DNA of 64,000 nt from Parcubacteria bacterium C7867-008 (GCA_001189215.1 LFCR01000002.1:74677-138676); one strand, 5' to 3'; positions 16,007 through 31,159 are shown, numbered from the stretch's first letter. Numbers and translations are program-made. Notes: generated from the letters alone by a model not told the origin.

Positions 16007-17424
16007 GTACAAACCGCCTCCCACGTATAGCGACTGCTGGAATGTGTTTTGCACTTGTCTTAAGTCTTACCTTTGCACCATTCTCATTTAGTACACCGAG
16101 AGCGAGTGCCCAACTTCCTGTTACCGATGCTGCGGTTCTTATTGCACTTACTCCACTTAATGTAAGTGCGGCAACAAGCGCAGAAGGTAACTTCTTTGAT
16201 GCACATATCCGTCCTATTCTTGATGGTCTCGCATGGACTGTAGCAAAAGTAGCAGTTCAATCTCTCACTCGTAGCGTGGTGAACTGGATTAACTCAGGTT
16301 TCCAAGGCTCCCCTGCATTCGTTGGAGACCTTAAGCAGAATCTTCAGGAACTCGGGGATACGGTTGCTGACGACTTTTTTGACTCACTTCAAGATAATAC
16401 GGGTGTAGATGTACGCTCTCCATTCAAAGACCAGGTGACCCAAGCACTTCGTGACAACTACTACCGCACAACGGGTGGATTCTACGGAAGCAACTACGAT
16501 CTAGATCGCTATAGCGATGATCCTGCTGCTTTCGTTAATGGTCACTTTGCGAAGGGTGGTTTTGACGCAATGTTTGCCGCAATGGCACAGGATGAGAACA
16601 CACCACTTGGTGCATACCGCGCAGGACAGGATTCACTTGCGAGAAAGGTTGAAGACTTCCGTGTAAACCGTCTCCACGAACTTACATGGGGCAAAGGATT
16701 CATGTCTTGGCGCGGTAACTGTCTCGTAAAGCAGCCTGCAGGCACTCCTACCTCTCTGCAAAAGAAAGATAGCTGTCTTTCTTATGAGATTAAAACTCCT
16801 GGATCGGTTATTGAAAGCACTCTTGGTATCACCGCATCATCCCCACTTCGTCAGCTTGAACTCGCCGACTCATTCAATGAGATTATCGGTGCACTTGCGG
16901 GTCAGCTTGTTGGACAAATACTTGGTGGTACGGGTCTTTCCGGAGCCTCACAGCCTCGCCCAGGGGGTGGTAGCTCATACTTAGATGAAGCAACTGACCC
17001 TGATCAGTACTCTCAAAACTCAACTAGCCTCGCAAATGGTTTCATTAAGAACGTTAGAGACGAGCAAACACGGACAAAGACCTATCAGAGGGATTGGCAA
17101 ACAGTGCAGTCTGCTGCAGAAGATGCAGGAAGCTGTGTTGACGACAGTGTAGTTCTTGATGCGGTTGAACGATCTAAAGCAGGACTTGAAAAAGCATCTG
17201 CTGCACTATCTGCACTCGACAAGATCAGTGCAAAGATATCGGCCGCTCAGAACTCAACTAACTCCTCAGCAGCACTCACCTCAGTCTCTGCTGAATTCCA
17301 AGAACTTACTTCATCAGGTACGTTTATTACTGCTGGTGAGCAGGTTGAGGCACAGACACAGGCAAGTGATTCAGAGGGTACTCTATACAAGAAACTCACA
17401 GCAACTTGCGGAAGTAAGCGATAA
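16003..17424 (+). CDS. hypothetical secreted protein, first gene of T4SS-like cluster
   Basis: Signal peptide MSTNRLPRIATAGMCFALVLSLTFAPFSFSTPRASA; Ala/Ser-rich C-terminal coiled region; translationally coupled to upstream gene. Confidence 0.45.
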   Translation: MSTNRLPRIATAGMCFALVLSLTFAPFSFSTPRASAQLPVTDAAVLIALTPLNVSAATSAEGNFFDAHIRPILDGLAWTVAKVAVQSLTRSVVNWINSGFQGSPAFVGDLKQNLQELGDTVADDFFDSLQDNTGVDVRSPFKDQVTQALRDNYYRTTGGFYGSNYDLDRYSDDPAAFVNGHFAKGGFDAMFAAMAQDENTPLGAYRAGQDSLARKVEDFRVNRLHELTWGKGFMSWRGNCLVKQPAGTPTSLQKKDSCLSYEIKTPGSVIESTLGITASSPLRQLELADSFNEIIGALAGQLVGQILGGTGLSGASQPRPGGGSSYLDEATDPDQYSQNSTSLANGFIKNVRDEQTRTKTYQRDWQTVQSAAEDAGSCVDDSVVLDAVERSKAGLEKASAALSALDKISAKISAAQNSTNSSAALTSVSAEFQELTSSGTFITAGEQVEAQTQASDSEGTLYKKLTATCGSKR

Positions 17425-17428
17425 CCCT

Positions 17429-19684
17429 ATGCGAATTACATCCCTGATGCTTCGCTCGGTACTCGTTGCAGTTTTATTTGTAGTACTAGTACTCCCCGGG
17501 GTACCTGTACACGCCCAACAACCTGCACCAACAAAGCCTGTTACTCCAGCCGCAGCAACACCTGCTCCTACGGCTGCTCCTACTGCCGCTGGGCAACCTG
17601 CTAAAACATCAGAAAGTCTTGGCGATAAGATAAAGGATGGAGCTGCAGCTGTAGGAGACATTGGTAGTTGTGCCAAAGATTTTGGAAACTGTCTTCTTAA
17701 TGCAGTGGGGAACGCCGTGGGTGGTTTTGCAAACTTTATACTGGCTCTCTCTGGAGTCCTTCTCAACTTTGTAATAGTTAAAACGGTATTCCAGTTCTCA
17801 ACACTTGTTGGTAACTCGCAGGGTCTATTAACCTCATGGGGAATACTGCGTGATCTTGGAAACCTGGTGCTGTTGTTCGGGTTTGTTCTGATGGGGCTCG
17901 GTACTATTTTGGATACGAATAAACTCCCAGACAAAAAAGCAATTCCAATGCTCATAGTCTTTGCAGTTCTTCTGAACTTTAGTCTCTTTGCTGCTGAAGC
18001 GGTTATTGATACATCTAACGTGCTTACATCAGCAATATACGCACAAGCAAACACTAATCCATGTTATTCGGAGGCGTGTGATATTAACGTGGGCCTTGGA
18101 GGAACCATAATGGAGGCAACCGGGCTTTCAACTCTAAACAATGTCCCAACTGACAGCTATTCCAAAAAGGCCAACAAACTTAGTATCATTTTTGGGTTGG
18201 CTGCATTCGCCATAATTGGTAGCGTTGTACTCTTTGCTGCTGCAATAATGCTGGCATTCAGAGCAGTTACACTAACAGGTTTGATAATTATCTCTCCCAT
18301 TGGTTTTGCTGGAATGGCTATTCCTCCACTTAAAAAGTATGCAACACAGTGGTGGAATGCACTTATACATCAAGCATTCTTTGCTCCTCTACTGTTCCTG
18401 TTCATCCTTATAACGCTAAAAGTAACCGAAGGGTTTGCTGCAGGGACTACGAATAAGGGCCTCGCCTCAGCGCTGCTAGCGCAGGGCACATCGGAAATGG
18501 GCATCATTATGGTGTTCATGCTGATCATTGGCGGTCTCGTTGCGTCACTTATGGCTGCAAAGAAGTTTGGCGCCATGGGAGCAGACTATGCGATCAATAC
18601 AGCAGGGAAGGTGGTAGGTGGAGCAACATTCGGTACCGCTGGATTTGTTGGAAGAAGAACTATCGGTGCTGGTTCATTGGCAGCCGCCCGCACCATACGC
18701 TCACAGAGCTGGGGCGCAACAGGGGCTGGTCGCATACTGGCAGGAGTTGCTGACCGGGGCGGGAAGGCAAGTTATGACTTCCGTAAAACGAAGATTGCAG
18801 CTCAAGCTTCTAAGAAAACTAAGATTGACTTTGGCACTCCAGGTAAAACTGCATCTGGTGGCTTTGCCGCAATAGAAAAGAAAGATATCGATAAGAAGAC
18901 TGCATACGCAAAGTCTCTTGAAATGAGTGAGAGCCAGAAGATAGAGAAAGAGAAACTTGGTGCTGCAAAAGAGACTGCTGCAGGTGAGCAGGCCGTTTCT
19001 GTTGTCGACACCAACACACGAAGAGCAGCCGCTGAAGCAACTAAGAAACAAATCAAAGACACTTGGGCTCCTCGCGAGCAACAGCTTAATACCGAGATTG
19101 CTGCTCTTGAAAGCAAGGCAGTAGCAAATGCTGGTGGGGCAGAGGTATCTCGTCTTGATACAGAAATCGCTATTGAAAAACTTAAAGCGCAACGCTTCCA
19201 AGCAACAGGACAGACTACAGAGTGGATGGATGCTGAAAACAAAGTCAAAGCGCTTCAGAAGCAGCGTGCAGAGTTTGTTGATGTTGAAACCAAACTCAAT
19301 GCACTTAGGGATGCAAAGACTACTGAGCTTTCTCAATACGAGGCTCAAATCGCTGTGGTTGATGGGGATCTCGCAAGCATCAGTGCAGAGAGTGCAGCAA
19401 GCGAGACGGCATACAAAGCGAAACTTGATGGAATCGATAAGAGACTCAAGGAGATTGATCCGAAGACTAAACAAGAAAAGTATGCCGAAGGACTTAAGAA
19501 TGATTGGTACGGTGGGTATAGCAGTCGTGAAGCAGCTCGAAAAATTAAGACTGACAACAAGAAGAAGTCTCCAGAGAAAGCACTTCTCGAAGCAATTAAG
19601 GCTCTTGAAGCAAACACTCCTCCTCCAGCAGCACCGCCAGCTCCTGGTTCTCCACCACCCCCTCCTACACCCCCAACTCCGTAA
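17429..19684 (+). CDS. TrbL/VirB6-like polytopic membrane protein with ~350-aa C-terminal coiled-coil/Lys-Ala-Glu-rich extension
   Basis: Start at ATG 17429 (5 nt after upstream stop) instead of track 17156; signal peptide, Pro/Ala-rich linker, then ~6 TM helices in VirB6-like spacing, then long charged coiled-coil and PPAAPPAPGSPPPPPTPPTP tail. Confidence 0.45.
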   Translation: MRITSLMLRSVLVAVLFVVLVLPGVPVHAQQPAPTKPVTPAAATPAPTAAPTAAGQPAKTSESLGDKIKDGAAAVGDIGSCAKDFGNCLLNAVGNAVGGFANFILALSGVLLNFVIVKTVFQFSTLVGNSQGLLTSWGILRDLGNLVLLFGFVLMGLGTILDTNKLPDKKAIPMLIVFAVLLNFSLFAAEAVIDTSNVLTSAIYAQANTNPCYSEACDINVGLGGTIMEATGLSTLNNVPTDSYSKKANKLSIIFGLAAFAIIGSVVLFAAAIMLAFRAVTLTGLIIISPIGFAGMAIPPLKKYATQWWNALIHQAFFAPLLFLFILITLKVTEGFAAGTTNKGLASALLAQGTSEMGIIMVFMLIIGGLVASLMAAKKFGAMGADYAINTAGKVVGGATFGTAGFVGRRTIGAGSLAAARTIRSQSWGATGAGRILAGVADRGGKASYDFRKTKIAAQASKKTKIDFGTPGKTASGGFAAIEKKDIDKKTAYAKSLEMSESQKIEKEKLGAAKETAAGEQAVSVVDTNTRRAAAEATKKQIKDTWAPREQQLNTEIAALESKAVANAGGAEVSRLDTEIAIEKLKAQRFQATGQTTEWMDAENKVKALQKQRAEFVDVETKLNALRDAKTTELSQYEAQIAVVDGDLASISAESAASETAYKAKLDGIDKRLKEIDPKTKQEKYAEGLKNDWYGGYSSREAARKIKTDNKKKSPEKALLEAIKALEANTPPPAAPPAPGSPPPPPTPPTP

Positions 19685-19740
19685 CTAAAGTCACCGTGGA
19701 GTAGTGGTAATTATTCCACTCACGCGCGATACTAAGAGTA

Positions 19741-20937
19741 ATGGGAGAAGAAGAGATCAACATTGATGAGCTCAATCCACAACAGAAGGCTGCCATTCTC
19801 ATGGCAGACCTTCCTGTTCCTGTTCAGAACTTTCTTAGAAGTCCTGAGCGCGACGCCGTATCAATTGAATTAAGTACAAAATATAAACTGCACGCTGATC
19901 AGGCAGGAGTATTCTCTGATGCATATATCTATATGCTCATGGGAATCTACACTCCTGAAGAGTTTGTACAACAACTTCGTCAGGCACAAATACCAGAAGC
20001 TACCGTTCAGGGAATAACCCTTGATCTAAATGAACGTGTGTTTAAGCGCCTTCAGAATGCTGAGCGTACGTACACGCCACCAGCCACGCCCGCACCAGCG
20101 CCAAAACCAGTACCGCCGCCGGTAGTAGTTGCTCCGGTTACTCCAAAGCCGATACAACCAACAGTAATGTCTGCACCAATTGTTCCAAAGCCTGTGCAAC
20201 CTCCTGTAGTTGCTGCTCCAGTCCTTCCAAAACCAGCTGTTACCGCCCCAGCACCACTGGTCGCAAGCATTCCAACCTTTAATCCTGCACTTGGCCCTGT
20301 TCCAACAGAACCAACCCCTACTCCGACACCATTTGCGCCAGTACCTAAAAGCATGCCTGTTATTCCGGTTCAAGGACCAATGCCAGCTGCTGCTCCAGTT
20401 CCACCCCCAGTACCACAAATTCCTGCCTATATTCCACCGTCGCCAGGAGCGACACCTATATATAGTCCGCCAACAGAGGCAGTGCAGCCTGGAGTACGAA
20501 CTATGGCTCACGATATTGAGATGATTAAAGAGGCTGTTGAGCATCCTCATCCTGTACGTCCAGACGTTCCTCCTCAGATATCTTGGCAGCCAAACTCCCC
20601 AGCACGTTCATTCCAGACATCATCTGTACCAAATACTCTTGCTGCACCAAGTATTCATCCGGCTCCAACCGGCGTGCCTATTGCTCCAATACCATCTATG
20701 CCACCGGCTCCAACCATGCCCGCACCTTCAGCACCATTATCTGTTGCGGTCCCACCACAGCACACAGCATCAACGCCTCCGTTACCTCCATCTTCAGCAC
20801 CCGTACCGCACAATCTCCCAACAGAACCAGCAGCGTATCCATGGCAGCAGCAAACACCAGCATCCGTATCAACGGGTCCAGCGAATCCAATCATAAAAGA
20901 GTACAGTGTGGATCCGTATCGTGAGGTCCCTCAGTAG
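19741..20937 (+). CDS. proline-rich low-complexity protein (PxxP/PVxP repeats), hypothetical
   Basis: Globular N-terminal ~115 aa then ~280 aa of P/A/V repeats (PVQPPVVAAPVLPKPAVTAPAPL...); causes many spurious antisense ORFs. Confidence 0.5.
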   Translation: MGEEEINIDELNPQQKAAILMADLPVPVQNFLRSPERDAVSIELSTKYKLHADQAGVFSDAYIYMLMGIYTPEEFVQQLRQAQIPEATVQGITLDLNERVFKRLQNAERTYTPPATPAPAPKPVPPPVVVAPVTPKPIQPTVMSAPIVPKPVQPPVVAAPVLPKPAVTAPAPLVASIPTFNPALGPVPTEPTPTPTPFAPVPKSMPVIPVQGPMPAAAPVPPPVPQIPAYIPPSPGATPIYSPPTEAVQPGVRTMAHDIEMIKEAVEHPHPVRPDVPPQISWQPNSPARSFQTSSVPNTLAAPSIHPAPTGVPIAPIPSMPPAPTMPAPSAPLSVAVPPQHTASTPPLPPSSAPVPHNLPTEPAAYPWQQQTPASVSTGPANPIIKEYSVDPYREVPQ

Positions 20938-20958
20938 GGAACTGATATACTCAAGGTA

Positions 20959-21384
20959 ATGGAGTATCAGGTTCCTCAGTTTATTGAAGTCGAAGATAAG
21001 ATATTTGGTCCTTTCACTCTTCGACAATTCATCTTCGTTGCAGGCGGAGTAGGGTTAAGTGCTGCAATTCTTGTATATGTTCCCCTTATCTTTGCTCTCA
21101 TACTTGTACTTCCTATTGCAGGGATCACCGGGGCACTCGCATTCTACAAAGTAAATAACAAGTCCTTCTTGGATATCATGGAGGCAGGATTCAACTACTA
21201 CACTAAGGAGCGTCTTTATCTTTGGAAGAAAGTTGAGAAGAAGTCTGAAACTCCTGCAATTGTGCAAGTTGCTGCGCCCACACAAGTGGATAGACAAAAG
21301 TTAGGTGTTTCAAGTGATCGTTTGAAAGAACTTGCGTGGTCTCTAGATATCAAGGATCACAATAAGACACCTGATACCTACTAA
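20959..21384 (+). CDS. VirB3-like small two-TM membrane protein
   Basis: 141 aa, hairpin of two TM helices (FIFVAGGVGLSAAILVYVPLIFALILVLPIAGITGALAF) directly upstream of VirB4 gene, as in Gram-positive-type T4SS. Confidence 0.4.
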   Translation: MEYQVPQFIEVEDKIFGPFTLRQFIFVAGGVGLSAAILVYVPLIFALILVLPIAGITGALAFYKVNNKSFLDIMEAGFNYYTKERLYLWKKVEKKSETPAIVQVAAPTQVDRQKLGVSSDRLKELAWSLDIKDHNKTPDTY

Positions 21385-21399
21385 CGTTATAGTTACTGT

Positions 21400-22032
21400 A
21401 TGCCTGCATCTAAACCAGCTCAAGATTTTGTACCTGTATCAGAAGTACGCAGTGGTGTAGTCATCCTGAAAGAGGGGGGCTATCGTGGCATCTTGATGTG
21501 TTCTTCTCTTAACTTCGCACTTAAGTCAGAGGACGAGCAGCGCGCAATAATTGGTGGGTTCCAGAACTTCCTTAACACGCTCGATTTCACCGTGCAGATT
21601 GTGGTGCATTCCCGTAAAACTGACATTCGTCCGTATCTTAATCTCCTAGGTGAACGTCTTCAGCACCAATCGAGTGAACTCATGCGCACTCAACTACGTG
21701 AATACATAAACTTTATTCGAACCTTTATTGAAGGTTCAGAAATCATGACAAAGACCTTCTATGTGGTGGTTCCGTATTCTGTAAGCAGTGCAGCCGTTTC
21801 TGTTAAGGGAGCATTTGCAGGAATAGGGAAGACGCCAAGTGCAGAACCCGTTGCTGATCAGGGCTTCGAGGAGGGTCGAGTGCAGCTTGAACAACGTATG
21901 GCACTCGTGGCTGGCGGTCTTGGCAGTTCAGGTCTACGCGCAATTCCACTTGGTACAGAAGAGATCATCGAACTTCTATACCGTTCATTCAATCTAGGCG
22001 AGATGGATAATCCAATCTCATTCACCGCATAA
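21400..22032 (+). CDS. VirB4/TraE-family ATPase, N-terminal domain (separated from ATPase domain by in-frame TAA)
   Basis: GVVILKEGGYRGILMCSSLNFALKSEDEQRAIIGGFQNFLNTLDFTVQIVVHSRKTDIRPYLNLL resembles the CagE/TrbE/VirB4 N-domain; same reading frame as 22036..23850. Confidence 0.55.
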   Translation: MPASKPAQDFVPVSEVRSGVVILKEGGYRGILMCSSLNFALKSEDEQRAIIGGFQNFLNTLDFTVQIVVHSRKTDIRPYLNLLGERLQHQSSELMRTQLREYINFIRTFIEGSEIMTKTFYVVVPYSVSSAAVSVKGAFAGIGKTPSAEPVADQGFEEGRVQLEQRMALVAGGLGSSGLRAIPLGTEEIIELLYRSFNLGEMDNPISFTA

Positions 22033-22035
22033 TCT

Positions 22036-23850
22036 ATGGCACTACTTGATTTCTTCAACAACAACAAGAAAGATGAGGCACCGGCAATGGCGCCAGTGTT
22101 GCCTAAGGATATTTATGCACAGGGCACACTCGATCTTGCAGACACGATCGCACCCGCAGCACTTAAGGTTGGCTCACGCGAGCTTGAGCTTGGAGAAAAG
22201 GTGGCACGATCGTTCTATACCATTTCATATCCACGCTTCCTTACGGACAGCTGGTTCACCCCCATAATCAATCTCGATAAGGTGTTTGATGTTTCTATAT
22301 TCGTTAGCCCTATTGATACCGCAGATGCGCTCCATAACTTCCAGAGGAAGGTAGCTGAAGTGCAGAGCCAGATTTCAGAAAGGGAAGCAAAGGGTCTTGT
22401 GCGTGATCCAATGCTTGATACGGCATACCAAGACCTTGAAAACCTCCGAGACAACCTACAACAAGCCCAGGAACATCTGTTTGAGGTTGGTTTGTACATA
22501 ACCATGTACGCTTCAAGTAAGGAGGAGCTTGATAAGGTTGAAGGAGATCTTCGCGGCATTCTTGATTCAAAACTCGTATACACCAAGCCTGCGCTCTTCC
22601 AGCAGGAGCAAGGGTTCCGTACCACGCTACCACTTGCCTTAGACCAGTTGAACGTAACAAACAAGCTCAACTCTGCACCGCTTTCTTCTATCTTCCCATT
22701 CGTCTCTTTTGATCTCTCAAGCGATCGAGGAATCCTGTACGGTATAAACCGCCACAACTCATCACTTATTCTTTTCGATCGTTTCTCACTTGAGAACTAC
22801 AACTCGGTTGTGTTCGCAAAGTCTGGCTCTGGAAAGTCCTATGCCGTGAAGCTTGAGATTCTCCGTTCACTCATGTTTGAAACAGACGTTATCGTTATTG
22901 ATCCTGAGCGTGAATACGACAACCTCGCACAGGCTACCGGTGGTAGGGTATTCAATATTTCTCTTTCAAGCGAGAACCATATCAACCCATTTGATCTTCC
23001 GCCGGTTAAGGAGGATGAAAACCCTTCAGATATTCTTCGCAGCACAATCATCAATTTGGTTGGGCTCTTCCGCATCATGCTTGGTGGTCTCAGTCCTGAA
23101 GAAGATGCAATTATCGATCGTGCTATCTCTGAAACCTATGCGCTCAAAGATATTAGTGGGGATGCAGATTTCACCGGTGTAGAGCCACCACTACTTTCAG
23201 ACTTTGAGAACGTACTTTCTGGTATGGAGGGTTCAACATCACTCGTACAGCGCCTCTCTAAGTACACCCGCGGCACGTGGTCTGGATTCCTCAATCAACC
23301 AACGAACGTTGATATCAAGAATCAGTTTGTGGTGTTTTCGGTGCGAGACATGGAAGATGAGCTTAAACCAGTGGCGATGTATATCGTTACGCACTTCATC
23401 TGGAATGCCGTACGCCACGAACTTAAGAAACGCCTTCTTATCATTGATGAGGCATGGTGGATGATGAAGTCTGAAGATACCGCATCATTCCTCTTCAGTA
23501 TTGCGAAACGCGGACGTAAATACTTCCTTGGTCTCTCAACTATCACCCAGGACGTTGAGGACTTCCTTCGCAGTCCATACGGTAAGCCAATTCTTACCAA
23601 CTCCTCTATGCAGCTTCTGCTCAAACAATCTCCAACAACGGTAGATGTACTACAGCAAACATTTAATCTGACAGATGAGGAGAAATTCCTTCTGCTTGAG
23701 TCTGGAGTGGGTGAGGGTCTCTTCTTTGCCGGCCTTAAGCACGCAGCAATTAAAGTTGTTGCTTCCTATACAGAAGACCAGATCATAACCTCAGACCCGT
23801 CCCAGCTACTTCAGATACAGCGTGAAAAATCACGGCAGGAGTCTGCCTAA
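22036..23850 (+). CDS. VirB4/TraE-family T4SS ATPase, ATPase domain
   Basis: Walker A FAKSGSGKSY, Walker B LLIIDEAWWMM, GLSTITQD; length plus preceding ORF about 814 aa, typical of full VirB4. Confidence 0.7.
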   Translation: MALLDFFNNNKKDEAPAMAPVLPKDIYAQGTLDLADTIAPAALKVGSRELELGEKVARSFYTISYPRFLTDSWFTPIINLDKVFDVSIFVSPIDTADALHNFQRKVAEVQSQISEREAKGLVRDPMLDTAYQDLENLRDNLQQAQEHLFEVGLYITMYASSKEELDKVEGDLRGILDSKLVYTKPALFQQEQGFRTTLPLALDQLNVTNKLNSAPLSSIFPFVSFDLSSDRGILYGINRHNSSLILFDRFSLENYNSVVFAKSGSGKSYAVKLEILRSLMFETDVIVIDPEREYDNLAQATGGRVFNISLSSENHINPFDLPPVKEDENPSDILRSTIINLVGLFRIMLGGLSPEEDAIIDRAISETYALKDISGDADFTGVEPPLLSDFENVLSGMEGSTSLVQRLSKYTRGTWSGFLNQPTNVDIKNQFVVFSVRDMEDELKPVAMYIVTHFIWNAVRHELKKRLLIIDEAWWMMKSEDTASFLFSIAKRGRKYFLGLSTITQDVEDFLRSPYGKPILTNSSMQLLLKQSPTTVDVLQQTFNLTDEEKFLLLESGVGEGLFFAGLKHAAIKVVASYTEDQIITSDPSQLLQIQREKSRQESA

Positions 23851-23856
23851 TCCGAT

Positions 23857-24240
23857 ATGGCAGCACAGCCTATCGACAACACGGAACAGCATTTGATGAT
23901 TGGCGCTTCATTCCTTGCAGATACCATTGGTCTTATCCCTGTAATTGGTAACTTTGTTTGGTTTGCCGCGTACGTTTCATTAACACTCTATTTTCTAATA
24001 AAGCTCGGGCCAAGCTATCTCGGGGGGAAGAATTCGGATCAAAAGATGGCCAAAGCCCTTATAACAGGGATTATTGGCGCCATACCAGTAATAGGGAACA
24101 TTGCTCCAGATCTCCTCATTCTGACCGTTACTACATTTCGTATGCACAATAAGGAGGTGGCGGAAGAGGAGCACAAAATGCAGGCAGCAACACAAGCAGC
24201 TAATGATAATGTTCGACGGAACCTATCCCGAGCTGCTTAG
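23857..24240 (+). CDS. small membrane protein with duplicated IPVIGN motif, hypothetical
   Basis: GLIPVIGNFVWFAAYVSLTLYFL and IIGAIPVIGNIAPDLLILTV hydrophobic repeats. Confidence 0.45.
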   Translation: MAAQPIDNTEQHLMIGASFLADTIGLIPVIGNFVWFAAYVSLTLYFLIKLGPSYLGGKNSDQKMAKALITGIIGAIPVIGNIAPDLLILTVTTFRMHNKEVAEEEHKMQAATQAANDNVRRNLSRAA

Positions 24241-24277
24241 CTTCGTACTGGTATAGACGCGTTATACTGTACCTATC

Positions 24278-25264
24278 ATGAAAGCAGGTTTCGTAGTACT
24301 GGCAGCACTTCTTATTGGTCTAAGCGGCACACCTGTACACGCACAGACTGCTGAAATTGGTCAGGACCCTTTGATGGTTTCTATAAGTCCTGATTTCCCA
24401 CGTCCATACGAAGCAGTTACGATAAGTCCTCAAAGTAACCTTATAGATCTAAGTGCCAGCACGGTCAGTGTATCTGTGAACGGAGTACTGATTGAAAAGG
24501 GGAGCGGTACCGCACCCGTACAAATACAAGCTGGTGCCGCTGGTGTCAGGACTGTTGTTACGGTAACTGCCGTGAATAATGGCCAGACATATACGAAAGA
24601 AATAACCATTCGCCCTGCAGATGTGGCACTTATTGTCGAGCCTGTATCGGTAAACCATCCATTCTATCGAGGAGCATCTCTTGTTTCTTCTGAAGGACTG
24701 CTTCGTTTAGTTGCACTTCCAGATCTCCGCACCACATCTGGGGCACCAATTCCCGCATCGAGCCTTGTATATACCTGGCGCAACGGTAGTCAGGTCCTTC
24801 AGGATAATTCGGGTATCGGCAAGTCTGTCCTTACCGCAACTGCGCCGGTACGCTATCGAGATACCACTATTCGTGTAACTGTTGCTACACAAGACAGTAG
24901 TATCGTTGCTGAGGCAACGGCATTCATCTCTCCAACCGTTCCTGTTATTCGTATCTACCAAAACGACCCCCTACTTGGTCCACTCTTTAATTACGCACTG
25001 CCTGCAAAAATAACTATGACTAGTGAGGAACAGACATTCCGTGCTGTTCCATATTACTTCTCCGGCATCCCACTCATGAACTGGACGGTTAACGGTAACC
25101 AGAGTCAATCAGGTAAGGATATTACGGTGCGTTCAAGTGGTTCAGGGACCGGAACAGCACTTGTTGGTTTCAATGCAAAACAGACTGCGTCAGGGGTGAT
25201 TGCTAACAGCTCTCTCAACATTAACTTCGGTGAGAAGAAGTCCCTTGGTATATTTGGCCTATAG
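24278..25264 (+). CDS. secreted beta-rich hypothetical protein
   Basis: Signal peptide MKAGFVVLAALLIGLSGTPVHA; Thr/Val/Ser-rich. Confidence 0.45.
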   Translation: MKAGFVVLAALLIGLSGTPVHAQTAEIGQDPLMVSISPDFPRPYEAVTISPQSNLIDLSASTVSVSVNGVLIEKGSGTAPVQIQAGAAGVRTVVTVTAVNNGQTYTKEITIRPADVALIVEPVSVNHPFYRGASLVSSEGLLRLVALPDLRTTSGAPIPASSLVYTWRNGSQVLQDNSGIGKSVLTATAPVRYRDTTIRVTVATQDSSIVAEATAFISPTVPVIRIYQNDPLLGPLFNYALPAKITMTSEEQTFRAVPYYFSGIPLMNWTVNGNQSQSGKDITVRSSGSGTGTALVGFNAKQTASGVIANSSLNINFGEKKSLGIFGL

Positions 25265-25266
25265 CT

Positions 25267-25893
25267 ATGAAACGCACCACTCTAATTTCAGCATCTTACT
25301 TCCTCCTTAGTGCGGTACTTATTTCAGTACCATCTCTCGTATTCGCGGATGACTCCTTCGTTCCTCTCACGAGTCTTCCTGGTATTCAAGATGTTGTTGG
25401 ATCGCCAACACTACCCGCATTCATAAATAATATTTATAAGTTCCTTATTGGGGGAGCGGCAATCTTGGCAGTGATTGAGATCAGTCGTGCAGGGTTCTCA
25501 ATCATGAATAGCAGTGACAGTATCTCTGCAAACAAGAAGGCTAAGGCACGTATATCTAATGCAATTATCGGACTCGTTCTCGTTCTTTCTCCATACATTG
25601 TGTTTAGCATTATCAATCCAAAGATTCTTGATATTAGTCTTGATTTCAGTCAGCTGAAGTCTGGTGCAACAGATGGAGGGGGTGGGGGTGCAGGGGGAAG
25701 TTCCGCATCATCTACGACTCCTGTTGCTGGTTGTGAGGCATATCCAACTCCAAGTGCTATTGGCGCTGAACAAAGCTGCAACACGGGAGCGGGGTATAAG
25801 CAGATAGATGCTAAGTGTTGCAGGGGGAGTGCAGCAGGAGCAAAATGCTGCGCTATTCCAAAGGGCACTGCTTCCACAACTCCTAAAATTTAG
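25267..25893 (+). CDS. pilin-like (VirB2/TrbC-like) protein with Gly/Cys-rich C-terminal tail
   Basis: Signal peptide, then two hydrophobic helices (FLIGGAAILAVIEISRAGF / AIIGLVLVLSPYIVFSIINP) separated by a short polar loop, then GGGGGAGG and 6-Cys tail. Confidence 0.35.
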   Translation: MKRTTLISASYFLLSAVLISVPSLVFADDSFVPLTSLPGIQDVVGSPTLPAFINNIYKFLIGGAAILAVIEISRAGFSIMNSSDSISANKKAKARISNAIIGLVLVLSPYIVFSIINPKILDISLDFSQLKSGATDGGGGGAGGSSASSTTPVAGCEAYPTPSAIGAEQSCNTGAGYKQIDAKCCRGSAAGAKCCAIPKGTASTTPKI

Positions 25894-25902
25894 TACCAAA
25901 TT

Positions 25903-27123
25903 ATGACTCGACGCATTCTCATCATCGCCGCAGCAATCATAGTCATACTTGGTATTGCAGTTGCAGTCTATTTCTTCTTTTTTGCTTCTAAACCAAGTGA
26001 ACTAATAATTGACACAGATCCATTCGGCAACACAGGTGCTGGAAATATTGATGGTTCTGGCTCATTAATAGAAGGGCAGGGAGCAGGTACGGTAGTTGGT
26101 CCTAACTTTGTACGCATCACTGAAGGCCCCGTAGCACTTGGCGTAGCAGCCGTTGATGTAATGATTCCTGACGTTACGGGTGGTGTAAGCACCACGAGCA
26201 GTAGCACACCACTGGTTCCTGACGTGGCGGTACGGTTCATTGATCGCGCAAGTGGGAACATATACAGCTATGTGACGCATGCTCGTACCCTCACTCGTAT
26301 TTCAAATAAGACACTGCCAGGTATTCAAGAAGCATCATGGGTTCCTGATGGCTCACTCGTATATGCACGTTTCATCACCAGTGACTCAGAGTCTGGAGAA
26401 CATATTGCCACCTATGCACTTCCAGAGAATGGAGAAGGGGGTTACTTTATCGAACAAGATCTTTCTCAAGCGACTGTTGTTGGTTCCACCGGCCTCTTTA
26501 CGCTCGTTACGAGCACAGGTGGTAGTGTAGGCACTATTGCTAAAGCAGACAGTACTGGAGCGAAGACACTCTTCACGTCTCTTATTTCATCTCTCATCGT
26601 CTATCCTTCAACTGGTACGTACTTTGCACACACAAAGGCCTCAAGCCAGACCGATGGATACGGCTTCCAGATAACCAACGGTTCATTTAATCGTGTACTT
26701 GGTCCATTACGTGGCCTCTCACTCCTTCCAAGTCCTTCAGGAAAGTCTCTTCTTTATAATTATGTAAGTGGCGGAGTTACGTACCTCGCAGTTATCGATC
26801 TTGCGAATCGAAACGCAACAGCACTTCCACTCGCTACTCTTAGTGAGAAGTGTGTGTGGGCAAGCGAGGTAACCGTATATTGTGGCGTTCCAACCACACT
26901 GAGTGGCTCAGCAATACCTGAAGATTGGTACCAAGGTGCTACCACCTTCTCAGATCGTATCTGGCGTATTGATATGACCGCTCGTGTCGCTACTCTTGTG
27001 ATTGATCCAACGCAAGTAGCGAAGACCTCTATTGATGCCGTTGCTCTCACCACAGACCCTAAAGAAGATGTGCTTGTGTTCACCGACAAGAGGACGGGCT
27101 CGCTTTGGTTATACGATCTCTAG
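25903..27123 (+). CDS. N-terminally anchored hypothetical protein (likely beta-propeller/surface)
   Basis: TM anchor ILIIAAAIIVILGIAVAVYFFFF; last gene of the plus-strand cluster. Confidence 0.45.
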   Translation: MTRRILIIAAAIIVILGIAVAVYFFFFASKPSELIIDTDPFGNTGAGNIDGSGSLIEGQGAGTVVGPNFVRITEGPVALGVAAVDVMIPDVTGGVSTTSSSTPLVPDVAVRFIDRASGNIYSYVTHARTLTRISNKTLPGIQEASWVPDGSLVYARFITSDSESGEHIATYALPENGEGGYFIEQDLSQATVVGSTGLFTLVTSTGGSVGTIAKADSTGAKTLFTSLISSLIVYPSTGTYFAHTKASSQTDGYGFQITNGSFNRVLGPLRGLSLLPSPSGKSLLYNYVSGGVTYLAVIDLANRNATALPLATLSEKCVWASEVTVYCGVPTTLSGSAIPEDWYQGATTFSDRIWRIDMTARVATLVIDPTQVAKTSIDAVALTTDPKEDVLVFTDKRTGSLWLYDL

Positions 27124-30058: not shown

Positions 30059-31159
30059 ATGATTATCAATATAGAAAAAAAAGAATTCTCTGAAGCAGTA
30101 AGTCGCGTGTCTCGATTTGCTGAGAGAAAGTCTGCAACATTACCGGTACTCGCAGGCATCGCTATTGTTGCCGGTGATGATGGTATCAAGCTTCGTGCAA
30201 CGAATCTTGAGACGGGTATTGATTTCAAGATGGGTGGGACTATTGAGCAGCCGGGGGTGGTGGCTCTTCCTGCGGTTACGCTTCGTGAAATAACTAACTC
30301 ATTCTCAGGAACAGGAACAATCAAACTAGAGCACACGGGCGACACCGTCCTTATCTCCTCCTCTGCGGGGCGTAGCGCGCTTAAGACCCTTGCCTACGAA
30401 GATTTCCCCACACTCCCATTCCCTGAAGCTCCTACGGCTAAATTTACGCTTCCAGGAGTATCTATTCGTACACTCGTACTCACTGTTGCTGGTTGTGCGT
30501 CACCTTCTACAGTGCGTCCTGAGCTGGCTAGTGTTCTTCTCTCGGCTGAAGGAGGTTTTGTTAAGGCTGTTGCTACTGATTCGTTCCGTCTTGCTGAGAA
30601 AAAGATTTCCGTAACAGGGTCTGTGGCCCCATTTTCTATACTTATCCCTGCAAAGAATGCGATTGATATCGTACAGACACTTCCCGATACCGATGTGGAG
30701 GTACTTATTGATGAACACCAGTGCGCATTCTCCTGGCCAGGCGGTATTGTTACGACCCGTCTTGTAACGGTTCCATACCCTGACTACACACAGATCATTC
30801 CTAAACAGTTTGTATCTGAAGCAACATTGCTTCGTAAGGACTTTGAAGCTGTACTACGTCGTACTGCAATCTTTTCAGACTCTTTCCAGAAGATTCGTGT
30901 TGGGTTCGCTACTGCAGATAAGAAGATTGCGTTCTCTGCACGTAATAGTGATGTTGGAGAGTCTTCTGAAAGTGTTCCTGCATCACTTTCTGGTGAAGCT
31001 ATTGAGCTTTCATTCAATCATCGCTATCTAGCAGCACCACTATCTCTCGTTAGTTCAGAGAATCTTTCACTATCTGCAGCAGGTATAGGGCGCCCGTTGA
31101 TCATTAAAGGGATAGGAGACAATACGTTCTTGTATCTTGTAATGCCGATGAATCAGTAG
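30059..31159 (+). CDS. dnaN: DNA polymerase III beta subunit (sliding clamp)
   Basis: Directly downstream of dnaA, 366 aa, three-domain clamp pattern ending LVMPMN. Confidence 0.8.
   Translation: MIINIEKKEFSEAVSRVSRFAERKSATLPVLAGIAIVAGDDGIKLRATNLETGIDFKMGGTIEQPGVVALPAVTLREITNSFSGTGTIKLEHTGDTVLISSSAGRSALKTLAYEDFPTLPFPEAPTAKFTLPGVSIRTLVLTVAGCASPSTVRPELASVLLSAEGGFVKAVATDSFRLAEKKISVTGSVAPFSILIPAKNAIDIVQTLPDTDVEVLIDEHQCAFSWPGGIVTTRLVTVPYPDYTQIIPKQFVSEATLLRKDFEAVLRRTAIFSDSFQKIRVGFATADKKIAFSARNSDVGESSESVPASLSGEAIELSFNHRYLAAPLSLVSSENLSLSAAGIGRPLIIKGIGDNTFLYLVMPMNQ

Follow-up and report, generated by a model that had tools for sequence, protein, structure and literature searches.

Two adjacent open reading frames in a T4SS gene cluster of Parcubacteria bacterium C7867-008, hereafter ORF1 and ORF2, are very probably two genuine, separately translated genes that jointly do the job of a single VirB4 polypeptide. 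They were analysed within a window of 64,000 nucleotides (GCA_001189215.1, LFCR01000002.1:74677-138676; positions are counted from its first letter), for which an initial annotation had offered three explanations of the stop codon between them: a nonsense mutation of recent origin or an error in sequencing, a VirB4 naturally divided into two subunits, or programmed termination-reinitiation or readthrough. The two-subunit VirB4 is strongly supported, whereas mutation or error, and readthrough as a conserved mechanism, are refuted. The two-gene layout is itself already known, having been reported as widespread in Patescibacteria (PMC12102498).

Table 1. The ORF1/ORF2 pair and its gene neighbourhood, in window coordinates.
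Feature	Position	Strand	Basis
Large polytopic protein of the same T4SS cluster, tentative, with weak TrbL/VirB6 similarity	17156..19684	+	PF04610, E 2.7e-4, 21.2 bits (below the cut-off of 25.9)
Small membrane protein of the PrgI family (VirB3-like), immediately upstream of ORF1	20959..21384	+	PF12666, E 1e-09, 39.2 bits (cut-off 27)
ORF1, stand-alone TrsD/TraD-like ('TraC-like', PF26593) protein, 210 aa; ATG at 21400, TAA at 22030-22032	21400..22032	+	Coordinates: sequence; assignment: homologue lengths, NCBIfam, hhalign, Foldseek
Junction TAA-TCT-ATG: ORF1 stop, 3-nt spacer (TCT, 22033-22035), ORF2 start	22030..22038	+	Sequence
ORF2, VirB4-like ATPase subunit of the T4SS, 604 aa, with the second part of its N-terminal domain and the P-loop C-terminal domain; ATG at 22036, TAA at 23848-23850	22036..23850	+	Coordinates: sequence
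Walker A motif, A-K-S-G-S-G-K-S, ORF2 residues 261-268	22816..22839	+	Translation; aligned to clostridial VirB4 GIPGSGKS
Walker B motif, L-L-I-I-D-E, ORF2 residues 467-472	23434..23451	+	Translation; aligned to clostridial VirB4 IIAVDE
Candidate T4SS pilin (VirB2-like), same cluster	25267..25893	+	PF18895 (T4SS_pilin), E 8.5e-6, 26.2 bits (just below the cut-off of 26.6)
dnaA	28468..29817		

Coordinates and translation bear out the layout that had been described for the junction: both ORFs are read in frame 1, and only the TAA and one further codon precede the ATG of ORF2. Two adjacent ORFs share a frame by chance in one case out of three, and the 3-nt spacer is ordinary, since neighbouring genes on the same strand in the window are separated by 2-56 nt (spacers of 2, 6, 9, 15 and 21 nt among them) and 12 of 79 relatives have a spacer of exactly 3 nt. 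The cluster to which the pair belongs (Table 1) ends ~1.3 kb upstream of dnaA and dnaN; its location is chromosomal and origin-proximal.

By profile and fold, ORF1 is the counterpart of the first ~245 residues, or N-terminal module, of fused VirB4 ATPases, encoded as a subunit of its own. It matches the NCBIfam model NF045971 (CD1110-family VirB4-like ATPase) at positions 2-122 (E 8e-5) and the NCBIfam Mycoplasma VirB4 model at positions 104-233 (E 4e-7), and hhalign places a profile built from 44 members of its family on residues 63-235 of the 866-aa, fused VirB4-like protein encoded by a C. sporogenes plasmid (98.3%, E 2e-14). For ORF1 as modelled by AlphaFold (pLDDT 81), the top 14 matches in a Foldseek comparison with the PDB are all TrwK/VirB4 of R388, with E-values at the level of noise beyond them. 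These NCBIfam, hhalign and Foldseek matches to a small, stand-alone protein encoded directly upstream of a VirB4-like ATPase uphold the earlier reading of ORF1 as a VirB4 N-terminal domain. A Pfam search of ORF1 with E-values up to 10 gave no match, in a copy of the database that possibly lacks the PF26593 model; in precomputed annotation, PF26593 (TraC-like) is assigned to the protein identical to ORF1 and to every homologue listed, and these labels were used for the assignment together with the NCBIfam, hhalign and Foldseek results.

ORF1 is only remotely related to the staphylococcal TrsD/TraD proteins and does not belong to their subfamily, because its match to the NCBIfam TrsD/TraD model (NF041427), although colinear, reaches 19.8 bits (E 5.6e-4) where the curated cut-off is 200, and the hhalign comparison of its family with pSK41-like TraD, colinear over 166 columns, has an E-value of 9e-4 and a probability of only 23%. 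The best 120 ORF1 homologues listed (70-100% identity) are all stand-alone proteins of 181-214 aa, and none of the best 150 representatives at 50% clustering (115-443 aa, down to 36% identity) is a fusion.

ORF2 has the family score, the P-loop motor with Walker A and B motifs and the T4SS gene context of VirB4/TraC-type ATPases. It scores 383 bits against NF045971, above the curated cut-off of 325, over positions 182-728 of the 752 in the model; it matches Pfam P-loop_TraG (E 2e-24), its residues 230-586 match the VirB4 C-terminal domain of PDB entry 4AG5 (E 2e-42), and in BLASTP it aligns to residues 283-842 of the fused C. sporogenes-plasmid VirB4 (E 8e-39). The designation of ORF2 as the ATPase domain is confirmed by the NF045971 and 4AG5 matches and by the Walker motifs. 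The two ORFs are strictly colinear with fused VirB4s and complement each other along them, neither overlapping nor leaving a segment out, so that the description of the pair as a canonical VirB4 of ~814 aa stands as far as joint colinearity with the full-length protein is concerned, but not as a single chain: N-module and ATPase are two cistrons, with a TAA in between, and not one polypeptide.

A similar order of secondary-structure elements, together with weak secondary BLAST hits, had raised the idea of an internal duplication. ORF1 and the N-terminal ~235 residues of ORF2 were accordingly considered as tandem repeats and rejected as such, with a profile-profile probability of 0.2% and secondary BLAST hits that are mutually inconsistent.

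The comparison of orthologous VirB4 genes, fused versus split, that the initial annotation had proposed was carried out on 80 loci from different species, 79 of which contain both halves. The 44-sequence alignment held no stretch conserved enough for a genome scan, and a narrower alignment of 12 sequences was used instead, which skews the 80 loci towards Paceibacteria-type lineages, at 50-72% identity. In all 79 related Patescibacteria species the gene is split, with a stop-terminated ORF1 of 206-223 aa followed by an ATG-started ORF2 whose N-terminus (MALLDFF in C7867-008) conforms to a conserved M-[AGS]-[LI]-[LF]-D-F peptide. The junction itself varies: spacer lengths extend from -4 to 442 nt (at most 12 nt in 62 relatives, longer in 17), 1 nt (TAATATG) being the commonest; the stop codon of ORF1 is TAA in 53 relatives, TGA in 18 and TAG in eight; and ORF2 is in the same frame as ORF1 in 30, shifted by +1 in 34 and by +2 in 15. 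The sister genome C7867-007, at 91% identity, keeps the gene order PrgI, ORF1, ORF2 and reads TAA-ACCGT-ATG, a 5-nt spacer that places the ORFs out of frame. Against this genome, with synonymous sites near saturation, dN/dS is 0.029 for ORF1 and 0.019 for ORF2, and both genes are under strong purifying selection.

Against this background, there is practically no probability left that a once-single virB4 was recently broken by a nonsense mutation, or only looks broken through a sequencing or assembly error, in which case ORF1 would be a decaying fragment or its stop codon an artefact. Such an event would agree with two ORFs that lie in frame and only TAA plus one codon apart, and a short duplication has recently split or fused the gene elsewhere, as between C. 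botulinum pCBG (split) and the C. sporogenes plasmid (fused; 98% DNA identity); yet it is refuted by an identical split, with ORF1 intact, in every one of the 79 related species, by dN/dS values of 0.02-0.03 in the face of near synonymous saturation, by the conservation of the ATG and N-terminal peptide of ORF2, and by ORF1 homologues that, among those listed, are all stand-alone. A pseudogene was likewise rejected, as neither relaxed selection nor a disruption limited to one lineage is seen.

Very improbable, too, is a programmed readthrough or recoding event at the TAA of ORF1 that would yield a full-length fusion VirB4, perhaps beside the two separate products. The in-frame layout in the window would permit the fusion, as would that of the 30 relatives with the same frame relation, but frame 0 is not enriched, and the other 49 of 79, the sister genome included, have ORF2 in a different frame from ORF1. 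The identity of the stop codon changes, and so does the spacer, up to several hundred nucleotides. Folding of the RNA at 21990-22110 and comparison with shuffled sequences revealed no stable or unusual structure at or after the stop (MFE z = -1.1), and the stop context is TAA-T, with which termination in E. coli is most efficient. Neither of the features expected of a recoding site, a conserved in-frame relation and a stimulatory RNA structure or conserved stop context, was found at the junction, and readthrough as a conserved mechanism is refuted. Because frame, spacer and stop codon all vary among the relatives, the in-frame layout in C7867-008, although real, is a coincidence that goes no further than chance.

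For the two-gene reading, the spacing suggests that ORF2 is plausibly translated by ordinary coupling to ORF1, that is, by termination-reinitiation. The stop and start codons lie within a few nucleotides of each other, as in coupled cistrons, and no ribosome-binding site of its own precedes ORF2: a Shine-Dalgarno motif is absent upstream of it, as it is for most genes of the window, where a Shine-Dalgarno-like motif precedes only 11 of 54 long ORFs (background 10%). The T4SS genes of the window are tightly packed, and in a genome largely without Shine-Dalgarno sites a tight stop-start junction would lead to coupling of the ordinary kind. Such coupling cannot be obligatory, since 17 of the 79 relatives exceed 12 nt and some have spacers of 30-442 nt. 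What the initial annotation had called programmed termination-reinitiation is plausible in this ordinary form, but as nothing special to this pair. A promoter of its own for ORF2 was considered and rejected; the CATAAT over the stop codon lies only 2 nt from the ATG, too close for a leaderless -10 box, and is unconserved in the relatives.

Split VirB4 genes of the same architecture are found on plasmids of Bacillota. Like ORF1 and ORF2, TrsD/TrsE of pGO1 and TraD/TraE of pSK41-type plasmids consist of a gene for ~200-230 aa before one for an ATPase of ~600-670 aa; on a pSK41-like staphylococcal plasmid (MPF_FATA), a traD of 227 aa lies directly upstream of a TraE of 670 aa, with a spacer of 20 nt. 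The staphylococcal pair shares the breakpoint with ORF1/ORF2, at approximately residue 247 of fused VirB4, although sequence similarity is remote, and it serves plasmid conjugation with a relaxase and a coupling protein, whereas the cluster described here is chromosomal, near dnaA, and includes a pilin-like gene. The split pairs of Bacillota megaplasmids (Pontibacillus sp. ALD_SL1, C. perfringens pJFP838A and C. botulinum pCBG) also have the order PrgI, N-module gene, ATPase gene, and among plasmids it is the Pontibacillus pair that both halves match best, with 30% identity for ORF1 (2e-14) and 34% for ORF2 (5e-109). Their N-module proteins are longer than ORF1 (257-312 aa) and their junctions differ, two having an 11-nt overlap and that of C. 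perfringens a 130-nt spacer with a clear GGAGG. The fused VirB4s of Bacillota (the CD1110 family and the 866-aa C. sporogenes-plasmid protein) have the same domain content and order, but as a single polypeptide; the same is true of TrwK/VirB4 of R388, which shares the fold of ORF1 at a structural-alignment identity of only 14-19%.

Mapped on the fused clostridial protein, the ATPase gene of each split plasmid pair (staphylococcal, Pontibacillus, C. perfringens and C. botulinum) starts at approximately residue 243-248, and because this start recurs in every case compared, the cut falls at a single domain boundary inside the N-terminal domain of VirB4, at approximately residue 245-250 of fused homologues. 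The split is old, being common to the sampled Paceibacteria-type Patescibacteria and to Bacillota plasmids, and may go back either to one ancient fission or to recurrent fissions at a permissive linker. In Clostridium plasmids, fission and fusion of VirB4 are ongoing: the difference between the split gene of C. botulinum pCBG and the fused gene of the C. sporogenes plasmid is a short duplication within an A-rich tract.

Among the T4SS components of Patescibacteria, homologues of TrsD are the most abundant, with 2,272 counted, 1,664 of them adjoining virB4 (Quiñonero-Coronel et al. 2025, PMC12102498). According to this study, TrsD is remotely homologous to the N-terminus of VirB4, one TrsD homologue is essential in Ca. 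Southlakia epibionticum ML1, and the T4SS of Patescibacteria often lies near the replication origin. Guglielmini et al. 2014 do not mention TrsD in their main text, so the 2025 paper is the sole source cited for the homology of this protein to the VirB4 N-terminus. The published Patescibacteria T4SS gene set (PMC12102498; Wang et al. 2023 for Ca. Southlakia epibionticum ML1) comprises a TrsD homologue, VirB4, PrgI/VirB3, VirB6 and VirB2-like pilins, as does the cluster described here; with its TrsD homologue next to virB4 and its origin-proximal position, C7867-008 is one more instance of that arrangement, with no substantive difference.

The likeliest model is one in which the ORF1 and ORF2 proteins reassemble non-covalently, with ORF1 acting as a detachable N-terminal subunit that would link PrgI and the membrane to the hexameric motor formed by ORF2. 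In R388, the N-terminal domain of VirB4 (residues 15-400) is wrapped by VirB3 and also mediates VirB4 dimerisation (PMC9259494); ORF1 would occupy the corresponding membrane-proximal face, and the gene for the VirB3-like PrgI adjoins its own. As a hexameric ATPase, ORF2 would drive both the assembly of the chromosomal, origin-proximal T4SS and secretion through it, in an epibiont-type bacterium. It is improbable that ORF1 is instead an independent accessory T4SS protein, for example a regulator or an adaptor for other partners, which shares only its ancestry with the VirB4 N-terminus. TrsD homologues reported from Gracilibacteria as not adjacent to virB4 (PMC12102498), C-terminal extensions in some members of the family, to a maximum of 443 aa, and the long spacers of some relatives would suit such a role; strict colinearity and complementarity to fused VirB4s, the conserved adjacency of PrgI, ORF1 and ORF2, and an ORF2 that by itself is without the first ~245 residues of fused homologues all argue against it.

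A further step beyond the detachable-subunit model, which we consider rather unlikely, is that the separateness of the N-module may be exploited functionally, for instance by loading ORF1 sub-stoichiometrically or on only some of the ATPase protomers. By analogy, the N-terminal domains of central and outer VirB4 copies in R388 contact different partners.

In summary, the junction between ORF1 and ORF2 should not be annotated as a pseudogene, a frameshift or a recoding site, and for "hypothetical proteins" of the ORF1 type encoded beside virB4 in Patescibacteria, a suitable label is detached N-terminal module of VirB4 (TrsD/TraD-like). Relative to the published text consulted, the analysis adds that the junction is free in both spacing and frame and that a breakpoint at approximately residue 245-250 is common to Patescibacteria, Bacilli, Clostridia and staphylococcal plasmids; neither the variable junction nor the common breakpoint changes the current view of type IV secretion. 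If partial loading of ORF1 were true, it would constitute an assembly switch for the T4SSs of monoderms and Patescibacteria, and the tight stop-start junction would be a device that sets the ratio of ORF1 to ORF2 in a genome almost without Shine-Dalgarno sites.

Among the relatives compared at the junction between ORF1 (the stand-alone TrsD/TraD-like N-terminal VirB4 module) and ORF2 (the VirB4-like ATPase), a subgroup of loci labeled mostly Kaiserbacteria or Paceibacterota (L027, L028, L030, L035, L036 and L045) separates the ORF1 stop from the ORF2 ATG by an AT-rich spacer of 31-39 nt in place of the tight junction; it carries repeated TTTAAA(T/C)ATTTAAA-like motifs and may act as an internal promoter or be some other insert. 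Long spacers occur in a few other relatives (442 nt in L053, 291 nt in L056, 156 nt in L068 and 116 nt in L052). In L034 and L061, two MAGs from one project with isolate names starting with MFD, ORF2 terminates prematurely, at 126 aa and 239 aa, respectively; no other ORF2 lying wholly within its contig is disrupted. These truncations probably stem from indel errors or mark true pseudogenes. As for ORF1, eight representatives of its family (P0140, P0147, P0167, P0170, P0192, P0196, P0202 and P0211) are 340-443 aa long and, since the homologous region lies at their N-terminus, therefore have C-terminal extensions.

Outside Patescibacteria, the top match for ORF1 and ORF2 alike is the megaplasmid of Pontibacillus sp. 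ALD_SL1 (L081, 351556-360149), whose locus also includes a pilin-like gene of the Mbov_0395 family and a large gene for a DD-metalloendopeptidase; for a member of Bacillota, this system looks unusually close to the Patescibacteria type IV secretion system (T4SS). VirB4 of Clostridium botulinum pCBG is split into products of 257 aa and 620 aa with an 11-nt overlap, whereas a 98% identical C. sporogenes plasmid has a single fused gene for 866 aa. The two (compared over L082:4481-4680 and L085:3966-4140) differ by a short duplication within an A-rich GGAGGAAAAAAAGAAT tract. Either the gene was recently split or fused at the domain boundary where ORF1 and ORF2 divide, or the difference is a sequencing error.

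The T4SS gene cluster of the window (17156..27123) lies directly upstream of dnaA and dnaN, near the likely replication origin, in agreement with the origin-proximal placement described for Patescibacteria T4SSs (PMC12102498). Four of its genes have no or marginal Pfam assignment: two gave no match, one a sub-threshold DUF4112 and one a Cadherin-like beta-sandwich domain.

Positions of features in and around the T4SS cluster and of example promoter-like motifs
Feature	Position	Strand	Remark
-10-like hexamer, examples	upstream of 19741, 20959, 21400, 24278, 28468, 52467, 61025	+	
-10-like hexamer, examples	upstream of 3739, 6584, 7526, 62876	-	
dnaA	28468..29817		just downstream of T4SS cluster
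dnaN	30059..31159		beyond dnaA
Cluster genes with no or marginal Pfam assignment	19741..20937, 23857..24240, 24278..25264, 25903..27123		candidate lineage-specific T4SS components

A Shine-Dalgarno motif precedes 11 of the 54 long ORFs in the window, against a background of 10%, indicating a genome poor in such sites. In place of such a motif, many window genes have a -10-like hexamer (TATACT, TACAAT, TATAGT or GATACT), with about 6-9 nt between its end and the ATG. This pattern suggests that leaderless or near-leaderless transcripts are widespread in C7867-008.
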